From positions 1 through 41,499 of IMG/VR virus record IMGVR_UViG_3300037761_000056: 41,499 nt of DNA; one strand, 5' to 3'. This DNA is from a virus (Duplodnaviria > Caudoviricetes). Position 1 is the stretch's first letter. Every line of letters starts with the position of its first letter. Made by a program: the position numbers and the translations under genes. The notes beneath the pieces are model-generated. The model was not told the DNA's origin. It did no database searches and saw only the letters and a list, made by a program, of their open reading frames with translations. Positions 500 to 34,183 of the stretch are shown here, piece by piece.

Positions 500-515
500 G
501 TTGCGCTAGTGCAAC
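500..515. promoter_or_regulatory. 16-bp palindromic binding site, copy 1 (GTTGCGCTAGTGCAAC)
   Basis: Matches GTTGCRC-NN-RYGCAAC, seen 5 times; intergenic. Confidence 0.7.
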
Positions 516-565
516 AGGGAAGGTGCTTTGTTGTGGGTGGGGCTGTCAACGGCTATCGCCGTCGC

Positions 566-847
566 TCATGTGAACTCCGTTCTCGTGGTTCCCCATTGGG
601 TCTCCGTGTCCGTCACCGGAAGACACCATCTCACTTTGTCCGTGCCGCAGGTGGGACACACAGGCGCAAGCACCGTGATGGGAAACACCACTTCTCGTCC
701 CTCACGTTTGGTGCGGATGAAGATTCGTTTGCTTTCGATGTCTCCCGTTAGCAACCATTCCTTCATGCGTGGTGTGCGGAATGCATCCACCGTGAGTGGG
801 TGTCCCGCTTTGCATGTACGGGAGTGCTTGTGGGTGATCTTAGTCAT
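566..847 (-). CDS. small Cys/His (zinc-binding) hypothetical protein
   Basis: Start MTKITH at 847 overlapping the upstream stop; CKAGH and CPTC motifs. Confidence 0.65.
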   Translation of the reverse strand: MTKITHKHSRTCKAGHPLTVDAFRTPRMKEWLLTGDIESKRIFIRTKREGREVVFPITVLAPVCPTCGTDKVRWCLPVTDTETQWGTTRTEFT

Positions 848-1046
848 CTGAGTATCGTGGACGTTGGGTGGGTGATATCTCACTTTCTGCGAGCCATAAT
901 TCCTTTTGTGTTTGTGCGAGGGATTTGTACGCAAGATACAATACTACTCCACATCGTGGACAGAATGCATCTACCTGCTCTGGGTTTTTGTGTGTGCATG
1001 GGAAGTACACACGACATGACGGACAGTAATGAGAGTATTTAGCCAT
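840..1046 (-). CDS. small zinc-ribbon protein
   Basis: Start MAKYSH at 1046; CPSC and CPRC motifs; overlaps both neighbours. Confidence 0.65.
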   Translation of the reverse strand: MAKYSHYCPSCRVYFPCTHKNPEQVDAFCPRCGVVLYLAYKSLAQTQKELWLAESEISPTQRPRYSDD

Positions 1047-1284
1047 GTGGGAGGGTATGTGTAATTTGGAACTTGCCGAACGACACAGACACAACTTCCC
1101 ACGGTCCGTCAGTGCGGGTTAGATCAATTTCACCTTGCCAATCGGTGTCACCGAGTTCGTCCGGAGCAATGTCGTAATATAGCGCGATAGACGTGTCACA
1201 CGCATCACGTTTGTGGATGAGATGCAATAGCACCATTGAGATCGGCACAGCATCCCGTTTAGGAACACGAGTTGTTTTAGCCAT
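1039..1284 (-). CDS. hypothetical early protein
   Basis: 81-aa ORF, first gene after the 1327-1355 promoter. Confidence 0.65.
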   Translation of the reverse strand: MAKTTRVPKRDAVPISMVLLHLIHKRDACDTSIALYYDIAPDELGDTDWQGEIDLTRTDGPWEVVSVSFGKFQITHTLPHG

Positions 1285-1326
1285 GTTGCTTTTCCATGAG
1301 TTAGGGATCGTTTGGATCGTTTCCCC

Positions 1327-1355
1327 AATTTAATATGGTCCCCATTAGTTGTCAA
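1327..1355 (-). promoter_or_regulatory. sigma70-type promoter
   Basis: TTGACA-17 nt-TAAATT on the minus strand. Confidence 0.7.
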
Positions 1356-1457: not shown

Positions 1458-2066
1458 ATGTCTGACCCAACTCAACCCTACGTATGGATTCCTGGAGACT
1501 CTCTTGATCCTGAGCGCATGTGGAAATGGCTCCCTGCTGATGTGGAGCGATCCAAGTCACTCTCCTATGAGGAAGTCCTGCCGCTCGTGCGCCAATGTGT
1601 GGCAGTTAAGTGGATGGAACCAGAGCCTGCACGCGCTTGGGTTGCCTCCTTAGGCCTCGCTCCGTACCAACAGCTCGCTGTTCTCCGATCTGCTGGGACA
1701 GAGCTCACCACCTCAAGTGGTCACACATCTGCTCCTGCGCCTATGACCCAAAACTGGAATGAGCTCTCCACTCGCCGCGCAGCTCTCTGGCTCGCGGGTG
1801 GCTCTATGTCTCGCATTGCTAAGCTTGAAGGTGTCTCTGAACCCTCTGTAGTGACCGCAGTCTCTCGTGTCCTTCCGGTTCCGCGCATAAAGATTCGCAC
1901 TCAATGTTCTTGGGAGGAGCTCTCTTTCATGCGCTCCTGGTTCATGCGATATGTGGACACCTTCCGGTATCGCCAACCGGAGGATATCGCTCTCGAACTC
2001 ATCCGCCTTGCACAGGCAAACGTGGAGCAAGAAGATGAGCCGCTTGGGGATTATGGTAACCCATAG
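1458..2066 (+). CDS. helix-turn-helix DNA-binding protein (regulator)
   Basis: GAGG RBS before ATG 1458; HTH-like segment WLAGGSMSRIAKLEGVSEPSVVTAVSR; only + strand gene in the early arm. Confidence 0.6.
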   Translation: MSDPTQPYVWIPGDSLDPERMWKWLPADVERSKSLSYEEVLPLVRQCVAVKWMEPEPARAWVASLGLAPYQQLAVLRSAGTELTTSSGHTSAPAPMTQNWNELSTRRAALWLAGGSMSRIAKLEGVSEPSVVTAVSRVLPVPRIKIRTQCSWEELSFMRSWFMRYVDTFRYRQPEDIALELIRLAQANVEQEDEPLGDYGNP

Positions 2067-2069
2067 ATT

Positions 2070-2340: not shown

Positions 2341-2946
2341 TTAGTCCTCGTCCTGCTCCTCGTCCTCGTCGTCCTCCAGCAGTTCCATTGCGGCTTCCAT
2401 GTCCTCTGCGTCCGCCGCGAAGGGTGCTTCCGGGTGCACGGTATCCCATTGCTTGATCGCAATGGTGCGGGCAACGTCCACCGTGAGCCCCATCTCCGTT
2501 CCGGCCGCAATGAACAGTTGCGCCCATTCGATCGGATCGGTTCCTTCGTACCGCTCCCCATTGGGAAGTTGCATTACCACTACCGTTACCGTAATGGTAC
2601 GGGTGGCACCGGTCGCGGTTCGGAGTCCGATTATCGCACTCAATACCGCTATGCGCTTCTCGTCCACGGTCCACGGGGCGGCCTTTCCGGCCTTGACGAG
2701 TTTGCCATGCGTTCGGCAGATTCGTTCCCCTGTCACGTCCCATGACGTGCCATTGCAGCCCGCAAGGATTGGCTCGTCACCGTATGCGGCACGGAACTTG
2801 TCTGTGTCCACAAGGACCATAAGTTCTGCAGCCGGATCGACTACGATCTTTTGTGATGCATTCCGGTCGGGTTGGGAATGGACCGGCTGTTGCTTCCATG
2901 CAACACCGATGTCTTCCCATTTGGGTATGTTGTTCGTGTGTGTCAT
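2341..2946 (-). CDS. first early protein, NGTS-motif family, acidic C-terminus
   Basis: ATG 2946 (MTHTNN); tail ELLEDDEDEEQDED; shares a motif with 38609-39025. Confidence 0.75.
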   Translation of the reverse strand: MTHTNNIPKWEDIGVAWKQQPVHSQPDRNASQKIVVDPAAELMVLVDTDKFRAAYGDEPILAGCNGTSWDVTGERICRTHGKLVKAGKAAPWTVDEKRIAVLSAIIGLRTATGATRTITVTVVVMQLPNGERYEGTDPIEWAQLFIAAGTEMGLTVDVARTIAIKQWDTVHPEAPFAADAEDMEAAMELLEDDEDEEQDED

Positions 2947-3395: not shown

Positions 3396-3411
3396 GTTGC
3401 ACATGCGCAAC
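3396..3411. promoter_or_regulatory. 16-bp palindromic binding site, copy 2 (GTTGCACATGCGCAAC)
   Basis: Consensus match; between the divergent early and late promoters. Confidence 0.7.
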
Positions 3412-3435: not shown

Positions 3436-3475
3436 GGGGCTATTGATAAGTCCCCGGGGCTATTGACAAGTCCAG
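3436..3475 (+). repeat. 20-bp tandem repeat overlapping the -35 box
   Basis: ggggctattgataagtcccc / ggggctattgacaagtccag. Confidence 0.75.
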
Positions 3476-3491
3476 TCCCCCATATTATGGT
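3463..3491 (+). promoter_or_regulatory. sigma70-type promoter of the structural arm
   Basis: TTGACA-17 nt-TATGGT upstream of terS. Confidence 0.65.
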
Positions 3492-5041: not shown

Positions 5042-6642
5042 TTGACCAAGACCTCCCTCACCTGGATGACTCTATCATCCAACTACCCAAGGATGTGAGG
5101 GAAGACCTTGCCTATGAAGCAATGGGCAACCTGTTTGTGTTTGCCCAGGTCTGTGGCTTCCATGATCTGCATATCGGCTGTCATGGTCCTGTGTGCGTGT
5201 TCCATGATCACAATCCCAAGAAGTTCAAGCTTATCTTAATGCCTCGTGATTGCCTCAAGACCTCCCTCATCGGGATTGCAGGGAACCTTAAGCGGGTTGC
5301 GGCGAATAGTGAGTCCCGCATTCTTATCATCAACGAGACCGCTGGTAACGCTGCCCACATGATGCGTGGCATTCGTCAGATTGTAGAAGGTAACAGAGTC
5401 TTCAGGTCATTGTTCTCCTCCATGATCCCTCAAGACACCAAACGCATCCGGTGGAATGACAGCGAGCTGGACTTCCCTCGCCAAGGCCATTACCCTGAGC
5501 CTACCATCACCGCGATGGGGATAGACTCCGCGGTGACCTCTCGTCACTACACCCACATCAATCCAGATGATTTGATCTCTCAGGAGGCCATTAAGTCTCC
5601 TCTGGTCATGAACAATGTCATTCAACGGATGAGTGGGTTCCTCAACCTCCTGGTGGACGAGTCTTCCACAATCACATGGGTGGGAACGCGCTGGGCGTTG
5701 TTTGATGTCTACGTGCGCATCCAACAGGTTTATGGTACTCAGCTTGCTCTTCTCATCCGTTCTATCATTGAGGACGGAGAGATTATCTGGCCCTACAATC
5801 CAGTGACGCACAAGGGCTTTACGCCTGAGCGCCTTGCGTTGCTCCGGGCGGAAATGGGAGAGTACCTCTACTCCTGCAACATGATGAACTCGCCACGGAA
5901 TGAGGAGTTGCAAGACCTCAACGTGGATGATCTGATGTGGTATCGGTGGCGCGGTGAGCGCACGGTGGAGCTGATGGCTGAGGACGGGCAGACGGTGATA
6001 GACTCATGGGACTTAATTGATCTTGACATCACCACTACAGTGGACCTTGCTCCGTCGGAGACCATCAAGGCCGACCGTAATGCTATTAGCACCGTAGGTG
6101 TGAGTCCCAAGCGCCAAGTGATTGTTCTGGATGCGTGGGCTGAGCGTGGTGATCCTGATAAGGTTATTGAGCACTTGTTCTGGCTTAAGGAGCGCTTTGC
6201 CCCTCGAGCCTTCGGCATCGAAGATGTAGGCTACCAAAAGGCCCTCAAGTGGGTTGTTCGCACAAAAGCAAAGGAACGTGAGGTTTATCTCAATGTAGTG
6301 CCTGTGAAGCCGGGAGGGCGAGGTAAGCCTCACGTTCGTGGCCTCCAGCCGATTATGGCAGCGAGGCGCATGTTTATGGACCCTGCTATGCACTTGCTCC
6401 GTAACGAAATGGCTGACTTCCCTTTGGGGAGGAACGATGATGCAGTGGATGCACTCGCGTTGCAGCTTCAGCTCCTCCGCGGAGCAATGAGTCCTCAGGA
6501 GCGCCAGCGCAACGAGGAGCGTCGCAAAGATGCTATGCGTAAGCTCCTTGGTCCACAAGGAGTAGAGGATAAAGTGGATGAGGAGCTGTTTGAGCCCAAG
6601 CCTCGGCGTAGTGGGTTGACAAGGGAGTACACCATAGCATGA
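5038..6642 (+). CDS. terL: terminase large subunit
   Basis: Walker A-like MPRDCLKTS, Walker B HINPDDLI, coupling motif VGTRW, RNase H-like TVDLA and DDAVDAL; GTG start coupled at 5038. Confidence 0.9.
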   Translation: MIDQDLPHLDDSIIQLPKDVREDLAYEAMGNLFVFAQVCGFHDLHIGCHGPVCVFHDHNPKKFKLILMPRDCLKTSLIGIAGNLKRVAANSESRILIINETAGNAAHMMRGIRQIVEGNRVFRSLFSSMIPQDTKRIRWNDSELDFPRQGHYPEPTITAMGIDSAVTSRHYTHINPDDLISQEAIKSPLVMNNVIQRMSGFLNLLVDESSTITWVGTRWALFDVYVRIQQVYGTQLALLIRSIIEDGEIIWPYNPVTHKGFTPERLALLRAEMGEYLYSCNMMNSPRNEELQDLNVDDLMWYRWRGERTVELMAEDGQTVIDSWDLIDLDITTTVDLAPSETIKADRNAISTVGVSPKRQVIVLDAWAERGDPDKVIEHLFWLKERFAPRAFGIEDVGYQKALKWVVRTKAKEREVYLNVVPVKPGGRGKPHVRGLQPIMAARRMFMDPAMHLLRNEMADFPLGRNDDAVDALALQLQLLRGAMSPQERQRNEERRKDAMRKLLGPQGVEDKVDEELFEPKPRRSGLTREYTIA

Positions 6643-6983
6643 GCATGACCGAAAGTCTCCAGGCTCGTGGGTGGTCCAACCAGATCATCGCTAGTGGTAA
6701 GGTAGTTATGGCTGTGATGGTCATAGGAGGCTTCATCCTTGGTGGGATGAGTATATTTAGTGTTACTGTTTCTGTTCCTGCTCGGTTAGGTGCGGTAGAA
6801 GTTCAACAAGTAGAAGCAAAAATAGCTGCTAGGTCTATTCGAGCGGAAGTTTCTGCTATAACTTGGTACATAGAGTTTCTTGTTCGTACTGAGTGTGCTC
6901 AACAAGATGCTAAAACTAAGGCTATCATTAGGAATGGTGGGGGTGTAGATTGTGATAACCCTAACATCAAGATTCCCAGATGA
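6639..6983 (+). CDS. single-TM membrane protein, lysis-associated candidate
   Basis: Hydrophobic helix then amphipathic region; two genes upstream of the peptidase. Confidence 0.5.
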   Translation: MSMTESLQARGWSNQIIASGKVVMAVMVIGGFILGGMSIFSVTVSVPARLGAVEVQQVEAKIAARSIRAEVSAITWYIEFLVRTECAQQDAKTKAIIRNGGGVDCDNPNIKIPR

Positions 6984-13366: not shown

Positions 13367-13367
13367 G

Positions 13368-13383
13368 GTTGCACGAATGCAAC
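13368..13383. promoter_or_regulatory. 16-bp palindromic binding site, copy 3 (GTTGCACGAATGCAAC)
   Basis: Consensus match at a gene junction. Confidence 0.7.
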
Positions 13384-21437: not shown

Positions 21438-22706
21438 ATGGCCGTAGGCATACAACCAGGGTTCTTCTCCTTCCTTATGGAAGGAACCCAGAAGGGCATT
21501 GAGCAGGGACAGGCTCGGAGGCGCGAGCGCGAAGCGCAGGAGCGCTGGGAGAAGGAGCAGGAGGCTCAAGCCAAGAGGGATGAGCTTAGCCGTAAGCAAA
21601 TTGAGGCTATGCTCTTTCCTACACTTGAGAAGAATCGTATCTTGGGTGAACCTGACCGTCAGGCGAGTGCTGGGATGCCAGGGATGGATAAGATGCCAGA
21701 GGTGACGGTCTCGGGAAGGCCTGGTGGAAAGGACGTGACGTTGTTCACACCTGCCGCTCGTGCTCCCCAGCCGGGGAGGCCTGCTTCAGGGTTGAGTGCG
21801 GTAAGTGAGGAACGCCGCTTGGCGTTGGGCTTACCCACACGAACACAAGTTGCAAAGTCTGAGCAAGAGCGTAATGTGCTGGAGCTTGAGCAACGCTTCC
21901 AAGCTGGGGAGCAGTTGACGCCACAGGAGTTGGAGACCATCAAGCAGGCTACTCCAGAGGCTCGCCAGTTAGAACGAATAACGAGGTTGGAGGCACCTTT
22001 GACTAGCCTTGCAGAACGTTATGTAAAGAATATCATGACGACTACCAAGGGACGCATTAGTGCTAGTCAGTTGGAGCAAATGTCTGGGGAGGCATTTAAT
22101 TCATTTAAGAAGGATCGTCAGCTGGCTATGCTCAATATGACCCCCGATCAAGAACCATATGCCCAGACGTTCTTCTCTCAAGCCATCATGGACGCATTTA
22201 ATGCTCAGGAGGAGATGGACCTCAAGAAGGCTATTGCTGAGGCACAGAAGATTGCTAGAACAGGGCGTACACCAGCACAAATCAGCACAAGCATAAATCA
22301 ACTCACAACACGAATGCAGGCAAGGATTAACAACCTAGATCGAAATGGTATGCTTTCGACTATATCTAAGCTGGATAGTCCTGTTGTTCCTGAGATGATG
22401 CGGACAGCATGGGAAGAGTATCAGAGATTAAATCAAGGACTGAGCACTCTTATGAATGCACAAGCACAATTTAATAACGAGCAGATTAGCTCTGAGGATG
22501 TTTCAGAGCTTCTTGGAAGATTTAGTGCGCTTATGGAAGGTGGAGGTAGTGGCGCGGCGGTTGGTGGACCAGCGCGAGCGCAGGGAGCTGGTCCAGGTGC
22601 GGGTGGAGGCGGAAAGAGTGAAGCATTGCTGGCGTGGGAACAGTATGCAAAGGACTTTGGGGAGGCTGAAGCTAAGTCTGATCTTGGACCCAAGCCCCCA
22701 CGTTGA
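21438..22706 (+). CDS. internal virion/ejection protein
   Basis: Helical, charged, GGAGG RBS. Confidence 0.6.
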   Translation: MAVGIQPGFFSFLMEGTQKGIEQGQARRREREAQERWEKEQEAQAKRDELSRKQIEAMLFPTLEKNRILGEPDRQASAGMPGMDKMPEVTVSGRPGGKDVTLFTPAARAPQPGRPASGLSAVSEERRLALGLPTRTQVAKSEQERNVLELEQRFQAGEQLTPQELETIKQATPEARQLERITRLEAPLTSLAERYVKNIMTTTKGRISASQLEQMSGEAFNSFKKDRQLAMLNMTPDQEPYAQTFFSQAIMDAFNAQEEMDLKKAIAEAQKIARTGRTPAQISTSINQLTTRMQARINNLDRNGMLSTISKLDSPVVPEMMRTAWEEYQRLNQGLSTLMNAQAQFNNEQISSEDVSELLGRFSALMEGGGSGAAVGGPARAQGAGPGAGGGGKSEALLAWEQYAKDFGEAEAKSDLGPKPPR

Positions 22707-25700
22707 TGCCACAGCAAGAGACTCTAGAGCAGCGGCGTAAGAGGGAGGAACGAGAACGCCGTAAGCAGGCTTACCTGCAACAATACGGTGGAGGCACAGA
22801 TGTGGCTACGATGCCTCCACTTGTACGCGCAGCTAGTGAAACATCTGGCATATCTGGTATACAGCAGGATGTGGAACGTAAGCGCCGCAAAGAGGCTTAT
22901 CTCCAGCAATTTGGTGCAGCACAGCCTGATCTTGAGACCGGAAGGGGGAAGGCTCAGGCGGAAGCCCAAAACCTCGCAGAGCAACAGGCGAAGCTGGATA
23001 TTCTCCTTGCTCGTGCTGACATTGATCCAGACCAGCGCACAAGGTTGGAGGAGCTCAAGAAGACCTACGCACCAGCGAGCCTTCTTGGCCGCCGAAAGAC
23101 TGAGGAGCGTCCCGTTGTTGAGAACATAGGAAGGGGTGTAGGTGCTGGGGTGCCCAAGGGTGCGGCGTTTGCTTTTGGTGACCTCCCCGGAGCCATTCTT
23201 AACATTCCTGGCACTCTGGTTCCAGGTATCCCCAAGGTTGGTCAGGGTCTGCGGGACTGGAGCCAAGAAGTCAATGCTACGATGGATGAGGTGTTTGATC
23301 CCCAAGGGATTGGTGGAGCGTTGGGAGACCTGATTGGGCAGGCAGCGGGTGGCTCCATAGGTTATGGGCTGGTGAATGCGAAGGTTGCTGTGCAGATGCT
23401 CAAGGTTCTGCCGAAGGGTGCCTTAAGGACATTGGTGGAGAAGTCTGCCACCGGTAGCATTGGTCAACGAGTGGCGGGACAGGCGGTGATCTCCATCCCA
23501 CTGGATGCCTTCCAAGCGGCGACACTGGAGGACGCAGATGGTTGGCAGAAGCTCCTGCAGTTTGGTGTGGCTCAGAGTGCAGGTGCGATTGGTGCAGCTG
23601 CCATTCCTGCGCCAAAGGTGAAGCCCCCGCCTTCGGCTCGCCCTGTTGATTTGACTGCCCCCAAAGGGGAAGCTCCCTCGCAAGGCACGATGGAGACCAT
23701 CGCGGCTGGGCAAGCCCTTGCGGCGGAACGGAATATCAATGAGGCTGCTAAGGTTGCTTGGAAGAAAGCTAACCCCAAAAAGAAATGGAATGATCTGAAA
23801 AGGGAGGAGCGAGACGCAGTCTACAATGCATATCGTTCTTCGGATGATGGTGCCACCGCTGTTGCACAAATGCAACAGGGCGTGGTGGATGTCCAGAACA
23901 TGCAAATAGAGTTGGAGCTTGCTGGTAAGACTGTACCTAGTACTCCAGCCACACCGGAGGGACAGGCAACAGTCAAGAAGGGTGCTAAGCCATCACCTAC
24001 TGATCGCGATGTCCAAATGGAGTTTGACAGCATCGAGGCCAGCATCTCAAGTGTCCGCACAGCATGGATGGATGCCTTAGATGACCCCACTACAGCTGGG
24101 CGAGCGAAGATTCTCAAGACTCAGCTTGACGCCCTTATGGATTACAGGGAGGATTTGCTGGCTCATGGTGCTGTTGGCAGGAGTTCTGGAGAGCTGACTG
24201 AGGTCCGTAATAAGCAAGGAGATGTAGTGCTCCGGCCGGTCCCAGCAGGGACTCCTGAAACAGGAGCAGCATTCTTTGATCGGACGCTTAAGGAGGCATA
24301 CAAGATTGAGGACTTCGCGGAGCGTCAGGAATATCTGAGGAGTGTACAAGGGAGCGCACCTGATAACAAGTCAGCATTGAATATTACAAGGGAGATCAAT
24401 CGACTGGAGGAGAAGCGGATAGATCAGTTGGTTCAGGAGAATACGATAAGGGGGGAGGAAGTTGATGCATCAGGAAGGCTAACTCCAGAACAACAGACCA
24501 CAGCTAGGGCTGAATCTGAAAAGGTTCTTGGTCCGTTGGTAGAGCAGGCTAAGCCACAAGCAGCTGAGCCCACTACTCATGTCACTGCAGAGCCCGAGAC
24601 CAACCCTCTCCTCCAAACCGACAAGCCCCTCTCCTGGCACCAAGCAAACGCTCGCCAGATGCAAATGGATGAGCTTGATGCCATTGTAACACAGATGAAG
24701 ACGCAGGCGGGGGAGGATGCTCCTGACCACCTCCGTAACATCATTGCAGCGTATAGGGTTGAGCTCAAGCGGATGCAGCAGGGGGCTACCTCGCGTGCGA
24801 TATTGGAAAAGCATGATTTGTCAACCCGGAAATCCCCCAGGACCGCGCCGGAACCCGAAACGGGCCAGCCCCCGTCCATGGGAATTGAATCGCCCCTAGC
24901 CCCATTGCACCGCGCGCAAACGGCATCCACGGTTGAACCACCCAGCCCGACAACGTCGGGAACCGGACTCCGCACTATCCCCGGAATCAAGCCCCTCAGT
25001 GAGTTCACTCGAACCGAGGTCCGCTCCGCAGTCCAGTTAATCAAGGCTAACCTCGCCTCAACAGACGACCTGACGAGGCAGCTTGATCTTGCCCATGACC
25101 TTAAACTCCTTAAGGCTCGACGGGTGGAGCTCAAGGCTGAATCCAAAGCCGCAGGGGCTTCGCCCAAGCCCAAGGCAGTGGAGTCCGGTGACGGCACCAT
25201 GCACTTAGTAGACGAGGGTGGACAACCAATCCTTGGTGACGATGGTCTCCCTGTTCAGGTGCGTAGGGATTTCAACGACCCGGCTTCACCCACTGCTAAC
25301 ACCAAGCCTGTGCTTGGGGAATCCAAGACCACACCGAGTCTTGCTCCTGACGATGGGCGCATACCCAACCCAGAACACTACAAAGCAAAGCCTAAGGCTC
25401 TCTCTGATGCAGACCTCCAGTCCCACATTCGTGATTTGGAGGAGAAGATCGACATACTTGATCCAGTGACTGCGGAAGGGTATGTTAAGCGATTGGACGC
25501 GATGAGGGATGAGCTTATCCGTCGGCAGAATCCCCCACGAACTAATGGCACGATGCTTTACACTCCACCCGAGCTTGGTGGAGCCGTTGCGGGCTACGCC
25601 TTGGGCTTCATGGTGGCGCCTAATGATGAAGTCCGTGGGGAGTGGGCCTTAACAGGTGCGCTGCTGCTTGGTGCTGGTGGATATGGAGTGCGGAAGTATA

Positions 25701-28480
25701 AGGCTCCCAAGCGTGTTGTGGTCAACAACATCCCAGGTCAAGCGGAGATGCGCCAAGGTGTGAAGACTCAGGCGGAAATTGACGCTCTTGGGGGACGCCC
25801 TCAGTCGCTTAACTATGTTGAAAAAGCATATACTGCAACCACAAGTCCTGGCCATTTGATTGGTAAGCTGCTTGGGGATAAGGGTAAGCATCTCCCTACC
25901 CATATGCATCCAGAACGGCTCATCGAGATGTTTGGGAGGTGGACCCACCAAGCGCATGCATTCGTCTATGGTCGTCCGTTTATAGAGGGACCAGATGGTA
26001 ACCTAATCGAACTCACTTACACAAAACCAGATGGGACAGTGGTTCCCGTAAAGAACATGCAGGAAATCTATCATATGGTAGAAGGTGACTATGAGGGCTT
26101 AGGGAACCTAATGGCTGCAATGACCCATATTGAGATGTCTGGCACACCTAGAGGCTCTAACGCTCCCCTTGATCTTGGTGCTGCGCTGGCATTTGCTAGG
26201 TCGATGCCAGAGAACTATCATGTGGCGGTACGGGAAGCACGCAAGTTGAATGAAGCTCTCCTGAATGTGATGCAACAAGCGGGACTCATCTCCGTGGAAG
26301 CAAAGCTCGCGATGGCAATGGAGAACTGGTACGCGCCGATGGAGAGAGTGTTTGGTCAATCGGTGCAGCATGGTCCCATAGATGCAAAGGGGAAGGCTAT
26401 AGGAGCAGCCACTCCGGTGCATAGCCGTAAGGGGAAGTCCAAGGAGCCTGTGCGTAACCCATTTGAGTCTATGCGTTACATGATCCCTCGTATCATGAGA
26501 GGGGTAGAGGTTAATAAAGCAAAGCTAGCGTTGATTGACGTGCGTAACGCGGACCCAGACACATGGGACGCATTTGTGACACGAGCGCCACGAACTAAGA
26601 AAGCAAAGGATAACGACCCCTATATTGCGAGAGTGAAGACCATCAAGGAACTCCTCAACCTTGAGACCAAGGATGCTGAGGGCTTGGGCTCATTGTTTAT
26701 GTCTCCATTGGATGAAGTCCGAGGGGATAAGCTCTCCCCTCGTGCCTACACCATGTCTATGTACAGGGATGGGGTGATGGAGACCTATCGTCTCGATGAC
26801 TGGATAGCTTATGCTTACAAGTCCCTCAAGCCGGAGGAGTTCAGTGGACTCACTCAGTTCTTGGGGGCTCCTGCACAGCTGGCTAAGAAGGGGATCACTC
26901 GTCATCCTATGTTTGTGACTTGGATGGCGTTCTTTGATAACTTTCAGTTGTGGATGAACTCTCAAGCATCCGTTGCGGAGGGGTTCAAACCAGGGTGGAC
27001 GTTCTTTGAGGGCCTCCAGCATTCGTTTAGGCGTAGCCCTGAATATATGGAGATCATGGCTGGGGGCGGAATCCATACTCTCCCCACAGCAGGAGCACAG
27101 AAAGGTATTCATACTCGGTTGTTGGATCTCAAGACACATGAGGGCAATGCTGTTCAATCTGCGATAAACTCTGCGAAGGAACTCAACTTTGTTGAAGCAT
27201 ACCTTGAGATGCTGCGTCCGGTGGCTGAGGCTGGGAGGCTTGGTGAAGCCCTTCGGGTGCGGGGACAGGGAGGCTCGGTGGCGGATGCCGTCTACGCAGG
27301 GCGCACGATAGGAGGGAACTTCTCCCATGTCGCACCAGCCATTCGAGCACTTAACCACCAAACGATGTTTCTCAACCCAGTAGTTAAGGCTCTGGACCAA
27401 GCCGCCTTTGCAGCTGGAGTCAACCCCTTCCGGGTGCCAGATGTGGGACGTAAGCGAGCTGCGATGCGGTACGCAGGAAAAGGCTTCCTCGCCTTTGTGC
27501 TCCCCACAGCATACATCTATTCCACTTATATGCAAGATGAGCATCTCAACTCTGTCCGTAAAACGGAGCAGGGGCGTCGCTACTGGTGGTTCCGTGCTCC
27601 ATGGAGTAATGGAGGCTTTGATGGGCTCCTTAAGATTCGTAAGCCGCAGGCCGAAGGTCAGTTCTTTGCTACTGGAACGGAGATGATTCTAGACAAGATG
27701 TTCGACGATGACCCTGTTACTGCAGGGGAGTGGCTCAAATCCCTTGCCACGGAGTCCTCGGTGAGCTTGGCTCCAGTGCTCCCTGCGATTGGGATTAGCT
27801 TGTGGGCTAACAAGGACCTGCACTTTGGTTCCCCTATTGTTAGTAGGGGGAAGGAAGACTTGGAATCTGCTTCACAGTCCAGCCGAACTAGTAGTGAGCC
27901 CGCGAAGGCGGTAAGTGACTTCCTCAAGCCGGTGACGGAGACTAGTGGAGCGTTGGACTCAGAGCTGTGGCGTCGAGTGCTCAGCCCCGCTGGACTGGAC
28001 TATCTCGCAAGAGGCTTTGGTGGGATGGTAGCACAAGATGCGTTGGAGTCTGTCTCTGACGCTGTGCGGTGGAACCGGGAGCGTTTCCTCGAACCACCCT
28101 CGGAGTGGCCTATAGTGCGTCGCATCCTTGTGGACTATCCCTTTGTTGCCACCAGGGAGGTGGAACAGTTCTACGATAACCTTGGTGAGGTGGATCGTGT
28201 CTCCCGGCAGATCACTAGCTTGGCTGAGACTGATCCAGATGAGTTCATGGCTTACTGGCAGCGACACCAAGGTCAGGCTATGCAGATTGGTTCAGTAATG
28301 AAGACTCGTCAGGACATCATCGAGCTCCGTCAGGGAATGGAGAACCTTGAGCATATGATAGGTCTGCCGCCGGGTCAGAAGCGGGAGATGAGACGGCAAA
28401 TGACCTTGATGATTATTGAACAGGCTCGAATGGCTAATGCAGTGACGAAGGCGATACAAGCAGCTACGCCCCAGAAGTGA
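22706..28480 (+). CDS. large internal virion/ejection protein with LPD38-like C-terminal domain
   Basis: ~1920 aa; KIRKPQAEG and ANKDLHFGSPIV motifs; last gene of the structural arm. Confidence 0.7.
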   Translation: MPQQETLEQRRKREERERRKQAYLQQYGGGTDVATMPPLVRAASETSGISGIQQDVERKRRKEAYLQQFGAAQPDLETGRGKAQAEAQNLAEQQAKLDILLARADIDPDQRTRLEELKKTYAPASLLGRRKTEERPVVENIGRGVGAGVPKGAAFAFGDLPGAILNIPGTLVPGIPKVGQGLRDWSQEVNATMDEVFDPQGIGGALGDLIGQAAGGSIGYGLVNAKVAVQMLKVLPKGALRTLVEKSATGSIGQRVAGQAVISIPLDAFQAATLEDADGWQKLLQFGVAQSAGAIGAAAIPAPKVKPPPSARPVDLTAPKGEAPSQGTMETIAAGQALAAERNINEAAKVAWKKANPKKKWNDLKREERDAVYNAYRSSDDGATAVAQMQQGVVDVQNMQIELELAGKTVPSTPATPEGQATVKKGAKPSPTDRDVQMEFDSIEASISSVRTAWMDALDDPTTAGRAKILKTQLDALMDYREDLLAHGAVGRSSGELTEVRNKQGDVVLRPVPAGTPETGAAFFDRTLKEAYKIEDFAERQEYLRSVQGSAPDNKSALNITREINRLEEKRIDQLVQENTIRGEEVDASGRLTPEQQTTARAESEKVLGPLVEQAKPQAAEPTTHVTAEPETNPLLQTDKPLSWHQANARQMQMDELDAIVTQMKTQAGEDAPDHLRNIIAAYRVELKRMQQGATSRAILEKHDLSTRKSPRTAPEPETGQPPSMGIESPLAPLHRAQTASTVEPPSPTTSGTGLRTIPGIKPLSEFTRTEVRSAVQLIKANLASTDDLTRQLDLAHDLKLLKARRVELKAESKAAGASPKPKAVESGDGTMHLVDEGGQPILGDDGLPVQVRRDFNDPASPTANTKPVLGESKTTPSLAPDDGRIPNPEHYKAKPKALSDADLQSHIRDLEEKIDILDPVTAEGYVKRLDAMRDELIRRQNPPRTNGTMLYTPPELGGAVAGYALGFMVAPNDEVRGEWALTGALLLGAGGYGVRKYKAPKRVVVNNIPGQAEMRQGVKTQAEIDALGGRPQSLNYVEKAYTATTSPGHLIGKLLGDKGKHLPTHMHPERLIEMFGRWTHQAHAFVYGRPFIEGPDGNLIELTYTKPDGTVVPVKNMQEIYHMVEGDYEGLGNLMAAMTHIEMSGTPRGSNAPLDLGAALAFARSMPENYHVAVREARKLNEALLNVMQQAGLISVEAKLAMAMENWYAPMERVFGQSVQHGPIDAKGKAIGAATPVHSRKGKSKEPVRNPFESMRYMIPRIMRGVEVNKAKLALIDVRNADPDTWDAFVTRAPRTKKAKDNDPYIARVKTIKELLNLETKDAEGLGSLFMSPLDEVRGDKLSPRAYTMSMYRDGVMETYRLDDWIAYAYKSLKPEEFSGLTQFLGAPAQLAKKGITRHPMFVTWMAFFDNFQLWMNSQASVAEGFKPGWTFFEGLQHSFRRSPEYMEIMAGGGIHTLPTAGAQKGIHTRLLDLKTHEGNAVQSAINSAKELNFVEAYLEMLRPVAEAGRLGEALRVRGQGGSVADAVYAGRTIGGNFSHVAPAIRALNHQTMFLNPVVKALDQAAFAAGVNPFRVPDVGRKRAAMRYAGKGFLAFVLPTAYIYSTYMQDEHLNSVRKTEQGRRYWWFRAPWSNGGFDGLLKIRKPQAEGQFFATGTEMILDKMFDDDPVTAGEWLKSLATESSVSLAPVLPAIGISLWANKDLHFGSPIVSRGKEDLESASQSSRTSSEPAKAVSDFLKPVTETSGALDSELWRRVLSPAGLDYLARGFGGMVAQDALESVSDAVRWNRERFLEPPSEWPIVRRILVDYPFVATREVEQFYDNLGEVDRVSRQITSLAETDPDEFMAYWQRHQGQAMQIGSVMKTRQDIIELRQGMENLEHMIGLPPGQKREMRRQMTLMIIEQARMANAVTKAIQAATPQK
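23861..23876. promoter_or_regulatory. 16-bp palindromic binding site, copy 4 (GTTGCACAAATGCAAC), intragenic
   Basis: Consensus match inside the large ejection gene. Confidence 0.6.
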
Positions 28481-28504: not shown

Positions 28505-29650
28505 TCATCCAAGTGGGTAATACCTCCCATTCCGTAAGGAGATGCGATTCATGGCGGTGAGGCTCTGAATGATCTCGGTCATGTCCTCTAGTTGAAGGTT
28601 GTGCTTGAACTTGTCCAGCAGTTGAGCCATAGTGGCTCCACCTTGAGGCGTGTGTTGGGCGATGGTGAAGAATACCTGCTCCTGATCGAATGCCAGGGGG
28701 TTCCGCCCTACGTGAGCAAAGACCTTAGGCATGTCCACTTCGACCTCCTCTAACAACACAAGCGCTCGTTGCATGTCCTCCAAGGTAATTACCATCTCGT
28801 TCCTGAACGAGGCAGCGATGGCCATAGAGAGCTTCATTAGATGGGTAGGCTTGCGCTCGTAATAACCAGCAAGGCGAGGGTCCACCAAATGAGTTAATCT
28901 CTCTTGGTATTCGATCCCCCATCCAGTATCCTACCACTCATAAGCCTCAGGGGTCAGCTGGTACTGCCCATTCAACGTGCTTATTTCGATGAGATCATCA
29001 TGGAGCAACTCCTTAAGCTTGGCTTGGGCGGGAGTCAACTTCGGTATCATCGGTTTGATACGAGGAGTGTCTTGATAAATACTGATGATGCGACTGGTGA
29101 GGCCTATCCCAACAGTATCAAGGGGCATTGCACTGGCGAGCCAATCTGGAGTAGTTCCCGCCAGAACGTTAAAGCAAGGAGCAATAATCTTGCGCTCACC
29201 TCCGGCCTCAGTACGATGAATCCACTCATCAGGGCTATCGAAGATGTCAGTCATGAATCCCACCATGTTCATCCCCGAGGTAGTAAAGAAGGAGGCGAAC
29301 TCGCTACTGTGTGCGGTGAGGGCGCTTTGACCGTCCTTGTGCGCCAGCACCATGTCACGAATGAGGCGCTCACGTGATGTGGAGTCCACACTGAATTGGA
29401 GGCCTGGCACCCCACGCATGATGTCCCGGCTTATACGCATGGCAGTAGACTTCCTACACCGTCCTGCAGGCGCAACCAGCAATACATACATGTTGGGGTA
29501 GTAACGGAAGTATGTTAGGTCTACCAGAACGCGGCGTTGAAGCACCCCTGCAATGGCGCTGATAGCAGTCCACTTGTGGAATAACTCAGGAGATTGTGAT
29601 TCAGCTGTGTAGACTAGGTAGGCCTCGATCCAACTGGGGAGTCGGGCCAT
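28505..29650 (-). pseudogene. DUF3987/YfjI-type P-loop ATPase (putative replicative helicase) with in-frame TAG at 28931-28933
   Basis: Walker A APAGRCRKST, SSEF, LAGTTP, GLTSR, C-terminal winged-helix-like region; two ORF-track ORFs share one frame across a single TAG. Confidence 0.7.
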
Positions 29651-29874
29651 CAAGCAAACCACCCACTGCGTATGCGATTGAACAAGCGCCGAACAACATA
29701 GGAGCGAATGAGTGACACCACGGTGAAGATTGCTCCTATGGCAAGGTTGGTGGTAAGAGGAGGGTTCCAGCCGAAGAGGGGGAACACCAGAAGCTGGCTT
29801 ATCAGTGCGATGGTGTAGCCGATGAGAACGTTGACGCAGGCCTCAATGAATGACCCACGACGAGATTGAGTCAT
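29650..29874 (-). CDS. small membrane protein (MTQSRRGSFIEA family)
   Basis: Two TM helices, SLIRSYVVRRLFN motif; coupled overlaps. Confidence 0.7.
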   Translation of the reverse strand: MTQSRRGSFIEACVNVLIGYTIALISQLLVFPLFGWNPPLTTNLAIGAIFTVVSLIRSYVVRRLFNRIRSGWFA

Positions 29875-32291
29875 GCAGCCCACTCCTTGAGTCCGTTAGG
29901 GTTGTCCTCACTTGCGTGTCCCCAGTTGCTCCCAATCTGGATGTCAACGGGAATGGTGAAGGTAATACCATTGAGGGTGATGGGAATACGCATAGCGTCA
30001 AGAATGATGGGGATAGCGATGTGGAGGTTCTCGGTAGGCACCTGGCTGAGAATGGAGTCATGCACCTGACACAACGTGCGGAGGCCAAGGGAGGGGTGTT
30101 GCTTCTCGATAGCATAAGTCCTGGCCCACGCCATGCGCCCAAGCCAGCCAACAGTGGACTGGGGGACCCAGCTGTATGCTTCACGTAGCAGTGCATCATC
30201 CATCCGCCCGTAGAAGGTACGTTGGAGGCCAAAGGGGTTGGTTAGTGTGCGGGTGCGCTTAAGCTCCCGTTCCACACCACGCCAGAAGACCTCCTTAATT
30301 TCTGGGTAGAGAAGGAAGTACTGGATTAGGAGGTGCTGTGCCTCATCAGTACTGATGCGGACTCCAGTTATGGTCGCGTCCTCATTCACTACAGCTGCAA
30401 GGCGCTTGGCTTCCATTCCGTAATTAGCTGCATGAACAACCCGTTTCGCCAGGTATCTTTCAATGGGAGAGATGCTCTCCACTGATTTTCCGAAGATTCT
30501 TGCTGCATTCTCCCTATGGACATCTCTAGAGGGGTCTGTGAAGAGTTCGATAAGCCCTTGACATCGAGCCTGCACAGCCACAACTCGCGCTTCCGCCTGA
30601 CTAAAGTCGGGATACAAGAACACGCACCCTTCATCTGGAATGTACATTCGCCGCAAGGCATCAGGCACATTCTGGAGATTACCTCCCGAACCGTAGATCG
30701 AGGCACGGCTAGCCAACCGATAGCTTCTGGTACCAGTGGGGTCAAAAGAACATCTGTATCTACCATCGCCATCAACTGGTGATACAAGGTATCGTTCGAG
30801 CATATCTCGACTTTCACGTATTCCCAGAATGTTGGAGAGCACAGGATGACTAAATCGTCCTGCAAGAGCATGAATCGCATCTTTATCAGCAGTTGGGCGG
30901 CCCGTTCCACGTTTGTACTGAGAGGGGAGTTTGAGTTTGTCATATAGAAGGTGTTGGACTTGTTGGGAGGACTTGACATTGACTGAGCCCCCCGCTAGGG
31001 CATCAAGCGAAGCTTGGAGTTGACCCGCCAGGGTGGTGTGCTGATGAGTGAGTTGCTCCCTCACCGCCATATCCACACGGAGCCCACGCCACATTGAGTG
31101 CATACACACTTCGTTATGCCGCATGGCCTCACGGAATGGTTCCATAAGCTGGCGTTCCTTCAAATCCACTTGCTGGGAGCGTTGAATCTCCATCGTTACT
31201 GCGGCGTCGAGGGCATTGTAACGGTAGAACATATCCAAGTCCTCCGTTTGCTTCCACAGCTTCCCGTCGTCCTTGTAGAAAGGTTCCTCGGTGTAAACGG
31301 AGGTCTGGAAGGCAAGGCCCTTCTGGAACACGCTCATTCGTTTCTTTCCGTGCGCCACGCTGATCTCGTCCTGTCCACTAGAGGCTTCCGCAAACAAGAT
31401 GTGGTGTGCTATCATGGTGTCCCACCAGAATGCCTTGCACTCCATCCCGTTATCACGGAGGACGGTTACGTCGAACTGTCCGTTTTGGTAAACCTTGGGG
31501 ATGGAGTTCTCACAGAGAGCCTGGATCGTGCCGAAGTCCTCGCCACTCACCACCACCGCCACCGAAGGATTAGAACTGAATGCAACGCAAGCGAGCTTCC
31601 ACGAACCGTCGTCACGTTGCCAGCACTCAATGTCAACACCAAGGACATGAGCACTATGCAGGCGATCAATCTCCTCCTGATATGTTGCTGGGCTTATGGT
31701 GTCAGTAACCCACTCTGTCCCTACCCGATGGATAGCCTTGTTGCCAGGGATGTAAAACCTACGTTTGGGATAGGTAAGTGAACCTCCCTCCCTGTGCTTT
31801 GCAACGCGCTGGAGGTCAAATCCAAGGATGGCACCAGCCTCGTACACTCGCATGCAGTAAGCAGGGTGAAAGCTGGGAATGACCTTGAAACCGGGAACTA
31901 GAGTGGAAGGAAGGATGCTCCCACGGTACTTGGTGATTCCTTTCTTCCCAGTAAGGATTTGGGTGGGGTAGGTGCCAAGGGCTACGATAACATTAGGACG
32001 CACTTCACGGATGTCTTTGGCTAGCTGGGCGATTCCTTGGAGGAGATGAATCTGGCCAGCGGCAGTGAAGAACCACTCGAATTTGTTACCTGGTGGTTGG
32101 ACGTGTGCTATGTTAGTGATAAAGCAATCCGAGCGGCTTATCCCAGCTTTGTGTAGAGTCTGGTTAAGCACCATTCCAGCACCGCCAACGAAGGGCTCAC
32201 CAGTAGCAATTTCAGTTGAGCCCTTCGTTGGCGGTGCTTCACCACAAATAAGTATGCGCGCCGACTTTGAGCCTGATTGGATGAGATTCAT
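29871..32291 (-). CDS. polA: family A DNA polymerase with N-terminal uracil-DNA glycosylase-like and 3'-5' exonuclease domains
   Basis: UDG-4 motifs GEAP..PFVG, VIVALG, FHPAY; Exo DIE, NGQFD, YNALD; Pol motifs DFSQAEAR, RYLAKRVVHAANYG, VHDS. Confidence 0.92.
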   Translation of the reverse strand: MNLIQSGSKSARILICGEAPPTKGSTEIATGEPFVGGAGMVLNQTLHKAGISRSDCFITNIAHVQPPGNKFEWFFTAAGQIHLLQGIAQLAKDIREVRPNVIVALGTYPTQILTGKKGITKYRGSILPSTLVPGFKVIPSFHPAYCMRVYEAGAILGFDLQRVAKHREGGSLTYPKRRFYIPGNKAIHRVGTEWVTDTISPATYQEEIDRLHSAHVLGVDIECWQRDDGSWKLACVAFSSNPSVAVVVSGEDFGTIQALCENSIPKVYQNGQFDVTVLRDNGMECKAFWWDTMIAHHILFAEASSGQDEISVAHGKKRMSVFQKGLAFQTSVYTEEPFYKDDGKLWKQTEDLDMFYRYNALDAAVTMEIQRSQQVDLKERQLMEPFREAMRHNEVCMHSMWRGLRVDMAVREQLTHQHTTLAGQLQASLDALAGGSVNVKSSQQVQHLLYDKLKLPSQYKRGTGRPTADKDAIHALAGRFSHPVLSNILGIRESRDMLERYLVSPVDGDGRYRCSFDPTGTRSYRLASRASIYGSGGNLQNVPDALRRMYIPDEGCVFLYPDFSQAEARVVAVQARCQGLIELFTDPSRDVHRENAARIFGKSVESISPIERYLAKRVVHAANYGMEAKRLAAVVNEDATITGVRISTDEAQHLLIQYFLLYPEIKEVFWRGVERELKRTRTLTNPFGLQRTFYGRMDDALLREAYSWVPQSTVGWLGRMAWARTYAIEKQHPSLGLRTLCQVHDSILSQVPTENLHIAIPIILDAMRIPITLNGITFTIPVDIQIGSNWGHASEDNPNGLKEWAA
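32178..32238. repeat. perfect 22-bp inverted repeat (17-nt loop) inside the UDG domain
   Basis: agcaccgccaacgaagggctca (32178-32199) / tgagcccttcgttggcggtgct (32217-32238). Confidence 0.9.
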
Positions 32292-32473
32292 TGCACAAGC
32301 TCATCAATTATCTTTTTGAGTTCAGATAAATCTGAGTTCTCTATTGTTCCTATGTATTTGCCGCTTGAGTACTCAGTGTCTTTATAGTATACCATAAGGA
32401 ACACATCCCCTGAGTAAACGCTTTTTGTTGGCCTAATTAACCACCGACCTACTTGATGTTCAGTTATCATCAC
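32288..32473 (-). CDS. hypothetical protein, AT-rich
   Basis: GAGGAG RBS, coupled overlaps. Confidence 0.55.
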   Translation of the reverse strand: MMITEHQVGRWLIRPTKSVYSGDVFLMVYYKDTEYSSGKYIGTIENSDLSELKKIIDELVQ

Positions 32474-33711
32474 TTGTTCTCCTCAGCAGTCCAGGCCTTG
32501 ATCTTCTTGATCGCAAGTGCTCGGCGCTCAGGGTCCAACTCTACGCCAAAGTAGTCCCTGTGGAGGGAGGCTGCTGCTGCGAGGCACGAACCAGAGCCCA
32601 CGAAGAAGTCCGCCACTATTTCTCCAGGAATGGTGTGGTACTGGATGAGCTTTTGGTAGAGCTCAACAGGGCGTTCCACAAGGGCTTCGCGTTCCTCTGT
32701 GGAGACAGGCGGGACTTTGATAACGTTAGACTCTGGGCGCTGTGCAAAGACTGCCTCACCCTTACGACACGACAGCGCTACATCATATCCCTTAGGATAC
32801 AGGTAGGAAGGTTGGTTCGTGAAGGTGCGCCCAGCAGACCGATCCCACATCACTGGGATTTCATCTACAGCAAAGCCTACATCACGAAACAAGGGCTTTA
32901 CATATGCATACCAACTCATCCCAAAGAACCATATCAACCATCCGTTAGGCTTGAGTACGCGATACAAGTCAGGGGCCATTGTAAGGAGCTGTGTGTAACG
33001 TTGCTTATCGTCAGTATAAGCACTCATCTCCCCAACTGTTCCTGCTATGCGCTCCCCGTAGTCCACACCGAAGGGTGGGTCCGTGATGATAGCATGGAAG
33101 GAGTGGTTAGGAATCTGCTTGATAACCTCCACGGAGTCCCCCAGCCATATCTTCTCTTCGATCTCCTGGTAGTCCGTGGGGTTGTCCTTGACGTCTTGCA
33201 CACGGAGCACTTGTTTGGACTTTTGCTCAGCCCACCTAAGGGCTTGTCCGGGGTTCTCCGCATTGGCGATCTCAGGGAACAGCTTAATGGCTTCCACCCG
33301 CTTTTTGGCTCTGCTTACGGAAGCCTTATCTGTGGCTCCCCCCACAAGGGCAGCGGTGAGGGAGTTAGTCCAGTTAGGGTCCTTAAGGCGCCGAAGGCGG
33401 TCGATCTCCACAATGGCTGTGTCACGTTCGAGCCAAGTGAATTGCTGCCTCTGGAGGTTAGTTTCCAGCTCGATCTCTCGTGCGAGCAACTCCGTTACGT
33501 TGCTTTGCTGGACAGCTTCGATCTCGGTCCAGCCGTTCAGCTGGGCAGCCGTTAGGCGACGGAAGCCATCCAGGAGCTCCCCTCTGTCATCCACCACCAC
33601 AGGGACCAACTGGTTGAATTGGATGAGGGAGGAAGCGAGTTCTTCAATGTCACCTAGTTCCTCACGAAATCGAGAACGTGTGACATGGATGGAGGAGATG
33701 GGGAGTTTCAT
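32470..33711 (-). CDS. ParB/Spo0J-HTH fused to a beta-class N6A/N4C DNA methyltransferase
   Basis: ParB LLDGFRRLTAA and ELETNLQRQ; HTH WTNSLTAALVG...SVSR; MTase GDS, ITDPPF (motif IV), ERP..L, DFFVGSGS (motif I); ATG 33711 coupled. Confidence 0.88.
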   Translation of the reverse strand: MKLPISSIHVTRSRFREELGDIEELASSLIQFNQLVPVVVDDRGELLDGFRRLTAAQLNGWTEIEAVQQSNVTELLAREIELETNLQRQQFTWLERDTAIVEIDRLRRLKDPNWTNSLTAALVGGATDKASVSRAKKRVEAIKLFPEIANAENPGQALRWAEQKSKQVLRVQDVKDNPTDYQEIEEKIWLGDSVEVIKQIPNHSFHAIITDPPFGVDYGERIAGTVGEMSAYTDDKQRYTQLLTMAPDLYRVLKPNGWLIWFFGMSWYAYVKPLFRDVGFAVDEIPVMWDRSAGRTFTNQPSYLYPKGYDVALSCRKGEAVFAQRPESNVIKVPPVSTEEREALVERPVELYQKLIQYHTIPGEIVADFFVGSGSCLAAAASLHRDYFGVELDPERRALAIKKIKAWTAEENK

Positions 33712-34148
33712 GGTGCAGAAGGCAAACCAAACGTAATCCACGGCCACTCGGACTTTTCCTTAATGGCTTGAAGACTGTCAAGTTCTTGTTCAGTAAGTGG
33801 TTCGGGTTGAGATCCTAGTTGATTACAGATTAAAGGGTTTTGTGTAGGCAAGTCCCAAATGGCAGCTAGTTGGTTCAGCTGCTGTGCCGCAGCAAGCAGG
33901 TTATTTTGCTGCTGTGCTGGTGCGTACTCTGAAGCAAGCTGAAGGTTATTTTGCGACGCACCTAGAAGTTGACCAGGGAATGGTTGTATGGGTAATAGGC
34001 TAAGAAGAAACCTAATCAGATCTTCTGGTTCTTCGCCATCAAGCCGGCGTATGTCTGCAGGAGTTAGCCTAACTATGAGAGTATCAAGGGGGACATCTAC
34101 CCCGATACTCAGTGTTGCTTTTTCTGCGTTGTACTCTACATTGATCAC
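33708..34148 (-). CDS. hypothetical protein
   Basis: GGAG RBS, 146 aa, coupled to the ParB-MTase. Confidence 0.55.
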   Translation of the reverse strand: MINVEYNAEKATLSIGVDVPLDTLIVRLTPADIRRLDGEEPEDLIRFLLSLLPIQPFPGQLLGASQNNLQLASEYAPAQQQNNLLAAAQQLNQLAAIWDLPTQNPLICNQLGSQPEPLTEQELDSLQAIKEKSEWPWITFGLPSAP

Positions 34149-34167
34149 TTAGTTCTCCGATGGGAGC

Positions 34168-34183
34168 GTTGCACGGGTGCAAC
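34168..34183. promoter_or_regulatory. 16-bp palindromic binding site, copy 5 (GTTGCACGGGTGCAAC)
   Basis: Perfect-armed copy upstream of the gene pair ending in the ParB-MTase. Confidence 0.7.

Follow-up and report, generated by a model that had tools for sequence, protein, structure and literature searches.

Dispersed palindromes and a ParB-methyltransferase fusion in a podovirus-like phage: a candidate site-loaded DNA methylation system

Fusions of ParB with a DNA methyltransferase are among the most common ParB fusions of phages, and the available text of the paper describing them leaves their function open (PMC12704722). Both the fusion class and a guiding role of ParB in DNA modification, the latter as a suggestion, are already in print, as far as the accessible parts of these papers go (PMC12704722, PMC6536676, PMC13229309, PMC4738411); the guiding of a modifying enzyme to sites appears there only as an untested suggestion (PMC12704722, PMC6536676, PMC4738411). 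The same pairing of ParB and N6/N4-methyltransferase domains that we analyze here occurs in these fusions, described along with ParB-terminase loci (PHROG 67 and 498; PMC12704722, PMC6536676, PMC4738411). In the available portions of these sources, neither cognate sites nor a recognition rule is given for the published fusions, whereas the family analyzed here has a full helix-turn-helix (HTH). Our literature search, with subscription journals largely outside its coverage, found the fusion class and no report of cognate sites for it. The subject of this work is the complete 41,499-nucleotide IMG/VR record IMGVR_UViG_3300037761_000056 (the window; G000 among the genomes compared), which, judging by its annotated genes, belongs to a podovirus-like phage. 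An earlier note on this sequence had proposed that a ParB-HTH-methyltransferase protein loads at parS-like palindromes and slides along the genome, methylating it in cis. The assignment of the palindromes to this protein is strongly supported because site bases covary with a residue of its recognition helix, and we consider it very likely that the fusion binds them; the subsequent steps are less certain.

The palindromes and the protein that reads them

The five exact palindromes listed in the earlier note (sites 1 and 3 to 6 in Table 1) are real: eight strand matches fall on these five places, and 100 dinucleotide shuffles of the window yielded none (mean 0.00, maximum 0). The consensus drawn from them, GTTGCRC-NN-RYGCAAC, is asymmetric, and sites 4 and 5 match it on the plus strand only. 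Written symmetrically, it becomes GTTGCR-N4-YGCAAC. A sixth palindrome at 2889, which had been missed, has one mismatch and carries the flanking dinucleotides typical of the clade. A palindrome scan of the window free of prior motifs ranks the same family first (6 sites vs 0.20 expected, corrected P 0.004), the best P among 20 block-shuffled genomes being 0.35. A role of the palindromes as RNA hairpins is unlikely by eye: the half-sites vary independently, and non-pairing mismatches occur on either strand.

Covariation between the fusion and the sites was analyzed in 36 loci, which remained of 54 after the removal of 10 loci without a site call (6 with less than 250 bp upstream and 4 with 700 bp) and 8 duplicates. 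The rule by which sites were called in partial loci placed no constraint on bases 2 and 4, its remaining terms being derived from the same data. In leave-one-out prediction, residue 129 of the fusion gives site base 2 correctly in 35/36 loci and is the best of 409 alignment columns, the next reaching 28/36. The observed pairs are Q:A (20 loci), R:G (11), H:G (1), K:T (2) and P:T (2), and the sole miss is the singleton His. Residue 130 (A130 in the window) is the best column for site base 4 (25/33). Three loci outside the count, L081, L091 and L110, have their sites elsewhere and agree with the residue-129 rule; L110, with Pro-Ala, possesses window-like TTGCA...TGCAA sites. When only the methyltransferase domain is used for the tree, residue 129 and base 2 each require 7 changes, and all independent pairs agree. 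Residue 129 (K129 in the window) aligns with R173 of ParB, the R of the 'GKSR'/'KERS' recognition helix, and with Q158 of Noc. According to the available text of the structural study, ParB R173 contacts guanine in parS and Noc Q158 contacts adenine in NBS (PMC7383237); the R:G and Q:A pairs of the phage fusions are thus the same as the crystallographic ones.

Distribution of the sites and the fusion among related phages

The family of the fusion is large: 416 of 7996 scored candidates matched, with identities of 50-69% for the best 120. A search of IMG/VR with an alignment of 118 sequences found relatives of the window, whereas a single-sequence search gave none. No close relatives were detected among cultured phages, full-length matches to the fusion being only 22-26% identical. 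All 16 IMG/VR contigs with a polymerase at least 43% identical also encode the fusion, as do 24 of the 28 broader relatives that are at least 90% complete. A de novo palindrome scan without an assumed motif, using arms of 6 bp with up to one mismatch, spacers of 0-12 and corrected P values (fusion-bearing records of at least 37 kb), detected a dispersed palindrome family in 12/12 near-complete close genomes, all of which carry the fusion, and altogether in 29/39 fusion-bearing records, 0/5 fusion-less records and 0/20 shuffles. The 0/5 overstates the contrast: four of the five show no family, and one, G029, has it, failing the scan (P 0.93) though it contains five perfect copies of its relatives' motif. 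Within the close clade, the palindromes are about 20 bp long (16-20 bp) and have a constant 6-4-6 core, and the sequence differs by lineage (half-sites GTTGCR, TTTCCA, TATCCA, TATTCA, GATTCA, TGTCCA, TGTACA and TATCAA); the sites of distant fusions have different spacings. Four distant fusion-bearing phages with other palindrome geometries, G036 (16 copies), G046, G024 and G049, provide material for extending the recognition code. Matches to the extended window motif in IMG/VR (41/64 parts) were mostly single among the matches listed and were treated as chance, because the two records tested have neither the fusion nor the polymerase.

The earlier note expected the motif and the fusion to occur together, which is the case in all 12 near-complete close genomes and fails in one species of a distant subclade. 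G029, which is apparently complete, and G069, a strain 96-98% identical to it, retain 5 and 4 sites, respectively, at the usual places and encode no ParB domain or fusion; seven other records of this subclade (G018, G026, G028, G030, G038, G064 and G074) hold both the fusion and the motif. The two strains differ at 2/100 site bases, approximately the genome-wide rate, which fits a recent loss of the fusion and proves nothing; recent loss, use of a helper's enzyme and a second binder are all possible. Their fusion slot is filled by other open reading frames (ORFs) (G029 38041-42472, G069 23756-26925), with a C5-methylase-like gene in G029 only. G056 likewise combines sites with the absence of the fusion, but its entire replication arm is missing, for which reason we did not score it against the association. 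In G071, a 32-kb record without the polymerase of this group, a stand-alone ParB-like gene (21602-22267) contains one perfect copy of the motif of the distant subclade.

Sites that persist without the fusion would be expected if another protein bound them, namely the HTH-like protein encoded at 1458-2066, which the earlier note had offered as the alternative and which has homologs in 8/11 close relatives, the small terminase or a host factor. We find this very improbable. The best columns of the 1458-2066 family and the small terminase predict a site base in 8/12 and 8/11 genomes, respectively, compared with 10/11 and 9/11 when residue 129 is applied to these genomes, its misses being singleton residues. 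A homolog of 1458-2066 was not found in the site-bearing records G009 (91% complete) and G012 (81%) and is doubtful in the complete genome G008, and covariation with a residue of a phage protein would not be expected of a host factor.

The arrangement of the sites departs from the regular scheme initially perceived. The gaps of 9972, 10493 and 10307 bp in the window are confirmed, and their similarity is unusual (post hoc P 0.002). The 10727-bp "fourth quarter" skips sites 1 and 2 and presumes a closed circle; the record is classed as linear and 82% complete, comparison of its ends revealed no terminal repeat, its last ORF runs open off the record end, and complete relatives span 44-50.5 kb. 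Given that, in addition, only 7 of the 95 internal gaps in 13 records, including the window, are 9.5-11 kb long (median 5.0 kb; 6-12 sites in each relative), a strict 10-kb period is rejected, and the approximate periodicity belongs to this record and does not characterize the system. What stands is genome-wide coverage in the sense of even spread: the largest gap between sites is below chance in six complete genomes, with G016 as the exception (Fisher P 2.5e-5 under a uniform null and 2.9e-6 under a gene-junction null), the test being limited to these six records, which are not fully independent. In the window, no point lies farther than 5.3 kb from a site within the stretches between sites.

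With gene positions taken from a simple custom gene caller, 71/108 sites are intergenic, 12/108 are at gene edges and 25/108 are inside genes. As noted earlier, one copy in the window is kept inside a coding region, the giant LPD38 gene; across the close genomes, the sites in the linker of this gene fall at residues 386-748, in all three frames and far from any gene start. Certain places are conserved: a site lies upstream of the small terminase in 11/12 close genomes (in the window, site 3, the position of which is conserved in the clade, lies ahead of the promoter that precedes the putative small terminase), ahead of either the fusion gene or the small gene leading into it (in the window and in 9/11 close relatives), and after a post-capsid gene (site 4, kept in most of the clade). 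Site 6 is a candidate autoregulatory site of the fusion operon.

Such places could mean that the fusion binds the sites mainly as a transcription regulator comparable to KorB or BisD, involved in autorepression, an early/late switch or road-blocks, with methylation local, site-independent or secondary. The excess of intergenic sites over the 7% of non-coding DNA in these 93% coding genomes fits this possibility, as do the sites before the fusion and terminase genes and the sigma70-like promoter near site 3, and action from afar is not foreign to such regulators: silencing by KorB works at distances between 4 bp and over 1 kb (PMC11790492, section 4), and BisD, according to the available text, activates promoters across about 50 kb (PMC12409273). 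Nevertheless, we regard a primarily regulatory role as unlikely. Fixed overlap with -35/-10 boxes was looked for over 72 oriented sites and not found (for -10 elements, the best offset is shared by 7/72), the TTGACA-like matches at 15/72 sites lie inside the site arm itself, and many sites within operons are squeezed in between the stop codon of one gene and the start of the following one. Furthermore, operators need neither independent sites inside genes nor an even spread, and the methylase motifs are invariant. The placement looks like coverage, with sites where the sequence is free to change plus a few promoter-near copies.

The fusion protein and the proposed clamp

The ParB-HTH-methyltransferase architecture read from the sequence is borne out. 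The ParB_N match is below the Pfam cut-off (E 6e-4), N6_N4_Mtase is confirmed, and both the ParB domain and the HTH are recovered by profile alignment to solved ParB and Noc structures (best E 2e-15); motif IV (DPP[YF]) precedes motif I (FxGxG) with a matching fold, which is the order of beta-class N6/N4 methyltransferases. The nucleotide-binding and methylase residues are nearly invariant: R52, S28, G49, DPPF and G372/G374 are kept in 118/118 fusions and N85 and R88 in 117/118, the G33 position being G in 115/118 and N in the window. The canonical hydrolysis positions (compared with Q52/E93 of M. xanthus and E78/E111 of B. subtilis) are occupied in the window by R14, F50 and T84. The protein begins at the ParB fold, without an N-terminal arm, and has no ParB C-terminal domain. 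Two fusions, G001 5850-7217 and G015 12766-14166, contain an in-frame insertion of about 46-48 aa at methylase residue 270.

The AlphaFold2 model of the fusion (mean pLDDT 90.5) matches beta-class methylases (E 3e-14) and Noc in a Foldseek search. A homodimer is predicted through methylase residues 265-332 with a score of 0.79, compared with 0.00 for the best of three controls, at a mark reached by 20/30 solved homodimers and 1/23 monomers; the prediction runs share at least 66% of contacts with pLDDT of at least 76. This score may stem from likeness to, or memory of, solved beta-class methylase dimers. Such a dimer would occupy the place of the ring-closing domain of ParB.

We favor, with modest confidence, the reading that the fusion loads at the six palindromes as a nucleotide-gated clamp, slides and methylates the phage DNA in cis. 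In all likelihood, the dimer reads each half-site with its recognition helix, as ParB and Noc do. The methyltransferase domains would dimerize in place of the ParB C-terminal domain and the ParB domains would close on CTP or another NTP, an arrangement that we consider fairly probable; the choice of nucleotide by a clamp is not predictable from sequence, according to the available text of PMC12704722, the supplements of which list a bacterial ParB-N6N4 construct. The closed ring would then leave the site and slide over a few kilobases, the loss of the usual catalytic residues making it slow to unload; ParB clamps are reported to cover up to 15 kb in the accessible part of PMC10676424. On balance, it would be the whole phage genome, not host DNA, that receives an m6A or m4C mark, and the site before the operon of the fusion itself would likely add autoregulation.

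Several observations weigh against this reading. In the covariation analysis, only three independent pairs are on well-supported branches, for which the sign test (P 0.25) cannot reach significance; no upstream site was obtained for four loci despite 700 bp of upstream sequence, and L092 has a single candidate, which breaks the rule. The palindrome family was not recovered in 10/39 fusion-bearing records, and the G029/G069 species has the sites alone. Under the site rule used, G016 is unevenly covered (24.5-kb gap), and for the window by itself, treated as a linear molecule, evenness falls short of significance (P 0.08); most sites are intergenic, several at conserved, regulatory-looking places. 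Among the hydrolysis residues, the Q52 equivalent is R in 118/118 fusions, the E78 equivalent is E in only 10/118 and the E111 equivalent is T in the window. The 11 NTP binders named in section 8 of PMC12704722 include no N6/N4-methylase fusion, though such fusions were among the 50 proteins chosen, and a phage ParB that activates a T-dioxygenase tolerates mutations of the NTP site, according to the available text of PMC13229309. Finally, fusion-bearing phages still avoid GATC, CATG, GGCC, AATT, ATCGAT and other words.

The non-canonical catalytic residues and the NTP-independent action of that other phage ParB (PMC13229309) would also suit a fusion that binds without sliding and either methylates the site or the DNA right next to it, or connects sites with one another to organize the genome when it is replicated or packaged, a role already suggested for ParB-terminase loci. 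In the same direction point the conserved site ahead of the terminase genes and the suggestion, in the accessible text of PMC6536676, that phage ParB directs modification during packaging. The nucleotide-binding residues are invariant, the fusion gene belongs to the replication module beside the polymerase and not beside the terminase, and a point mark needs no gap-filling sites, so that we hold binding without sliding to be improbable.

The purpose suggested initially, protection against restriction, is weakened in its general version: the mark would not amount to broad protection because the avoidance of restriction sites persists in fusion-bearing phages. More fitting purposes would be a defense against a single, specific host nuclease or the labeling of self DNA for replication or packaging. 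No methylation target emerged from word avoidance in the clade genomes. Avoidance is strong for ATCGAT, CCATGG and TTCGAA in the close clade; AATT and TTAA are nearly absent in G013, and AATT is depleted in G002. The loss of GATC in the fusion-less G029 was rejected as a clue to the target, being shared by the fusion-bearing G028, G030 and G064.

A broader proposal, which draws on at least seven joint switches of residue and base, is that of an addressed methylase: the molecule to be marked would be chosen by a lineage-specific loading code read by the ParB clamp and not by the target sequence alone. Each lineage would tile its genome with an address of its own, and the mark would be confined to self DNA, bypassing the host and co-infecting phages with another address, and G029/G069 could be a cheater borrowing the enzyme. 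We put this forward tentatively, being more inclined to doubt than to accept it. The sites, the one-residue recognition rule and the natural variants open the notion of ParB-directed DNA modification to direct examination with a single protein and a 20-mer. If sliding is real, this would be a new form of discrimination between self and non-self DNA, in which whatever carries the address is marked, and would supply orthogonal clamp-site pairs for targeted methylation over kilobases or for labeling of loci.

Genome context and comparison with known systems

The plus strand of the window encodes the terminase, an SU10-type portal and adaptor, the capsid and putative ejection genes, and the minus strand encodes the helicase/primase, the UDG-PolA polymerase, the ParB-methyltransferase, a Sak4-like protein and an exonuclease. 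The polymerase is common to the entire phage group and always adjoins the fusion gene. The phage is apparently lytic; an integrase (PF00589) was detected in 0/12 records (the window and 11 close relatives), with 14/14 for the controls. Assignment of a host through GTDB was abandoned, a single 2-kb contig in an Actinomycetota bin being too weak. The helicase/primase gene (28505-29650, minus strand), a single ORF in relatives, is broken by one in-frame stop at 28931, where contigs from two runs carry a different letter; the stop is probably an assembly error or a minor variant. A perfect 22-bp inverted repeat with a 17-nt loop (32178-32238) lies shortly after the fusion operon, in the 5' part of the polymerase gene, and a 33-bp inverted repeat (88%) at 2070-2238, between the convergent gene 1458-2066 and ORF ending at 2341, is a candidate terminator pair or origin-like element.

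Table 1. Sites, genes and protein domains discussed in the text (window coordinates)
Feature	Coordinates	Strand	Remarks
Site 1	500..515		16-bp core (~20 bp including flanks); ORF 263-475 (-) lies 25 bp downstream
Site 2	2889..2904		One mismatch; in or at 5' end of conserved ORF ending 2341 (-)
Site 3	3396..3411		Early/late divergence; 52 bp upstream of sigma70-like promoter (3463-3491)
Site 4	13368..13383		Junction after post-capsid gene 12731-13366; overlaps ATG at 13377
Site 5	23861..23876		Inside 1925-aa LPD38 gene, aa 386-391, start of variable linker
Site 6	34168..34183		ORF 33708-34148, immediately ahead of fusion gene, lies 20 bp downstream
HTH-like protein	1458..2066	+	Rival binder, not supported
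Giant LPD38 gene (putative ejection)	22706..28480	+	Linker holds site in 8/12 close genomes
UDG-PolA polymerase	29871..32291	-	Family A polymerase with N-terminal uracil-DNA-glycosylase-like domain
ParB-HTH-N6/N4 DNA methyltransferase fusion	32470..33711	-	413 aa; directly upstream of UDG-PolA polymerase module
ParB nucleotide-binding domain	33424..33711	-	aa 1-96; R16, S28, G49-x-x-R52, N85, R88 kept
Helix-turn-helix	33280..33375	-	aa 113-144; K129 codon 33325-33327
Beta-class amino-methyltransferase domain	32512..33096	-	aa 206-400; DPPF 211-214, FxGxG 370-374; predicted dimer interface aa 265-332

The closest parallels to the DNA-reading part of the fusion are chromosomal ParB-parS and Noc-NBS, which share with it a ParB nucleotide domain combined with an HTH and a 16-bp palindromic core (available text of PMC7383237; PDB 6sdk, 7o0n, 1vz0, 7ng0). 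The specificity position is the same and so is the code, R:G and Q:A, on the phage side by covariation. Noc sites are dispersed too. Unlike ParB and Noc, the phage fusion has a DNA methyltransferase for a C-terminal domain, has lost the canonical hydrolysis residues and is not accompanied by ParA, and its site is of the 6-4-6 type with a free spacer and varies among phage lineages. A ParABS partition system of a plasmid-like prophage, to which the ParB fold, the HTH and the 16-bp palindromes might have pointed, is extremely improbable: ParA (PF13614) was detected in 0/12 records of the set and with the controls given above for the integrase, the sites are dispersed more evenly than random and not clustered in one centromere-like region, the phage has its own polymerase and helicase, and the protein lacks the N-terminal arm.

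KorB-OB of plasmid RK2 (PMC11790492) and BisD-bisS of ICEclc (PMC12409273) likewise combine, in the available text, a ParB-family clamp on a mobile element with palindromes both near and far from promoters and action at a distance. In contrast to KorB and BisD, the cargo of the phage protein is a DNA-acting enzyme, not a transcription domain, and it resides in an apparently lytic phage; no KorA- or BisC-like partner was identified in the phage, where the two HTH rivals, 1458-2066 and the small terminase, were the ones examined. VirB of Shigella is a ParB-type clamp without the acidic residues E78/E111 and a slow CTPase, according to the accessible part of PMC10676424; unlike the phage fusion, it is an anti-silencer and carries no enzymatic cargo. 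The methyltransferase domain resembles the beta-class amino-methyltransferases M1.HpyAVI, M.BceJIV, CcrM and M.MboIIA in its fold and in the order DPPF, variable region, FxGxG; unlike the fusion, these enzymes have no loading module.

Among phage systems, the ParB-dependent T-dioxygenases similarly couple a phage ParB to post-replicative DNA modification; in the available text, these are separate proteins, and the ParBs are without a DNA-binding domain and tolerant of changes in the NTP site (PMC13229309). In ParB-terminase (ParB-Tls) loci, the gene is next to the terminase genes; in the window and its relatives, the fusion instead lies just upstream of the polymerase. Taken together, these comparisons suggest that the fusion works like ParB and Noc in recognition and, by analogy, probably acts at a distance like KorB, BisD and VirB. 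Because it has no ParA and its sites are dispersed, the system is not ParABS, and neither is it a ParB-terminase locus.

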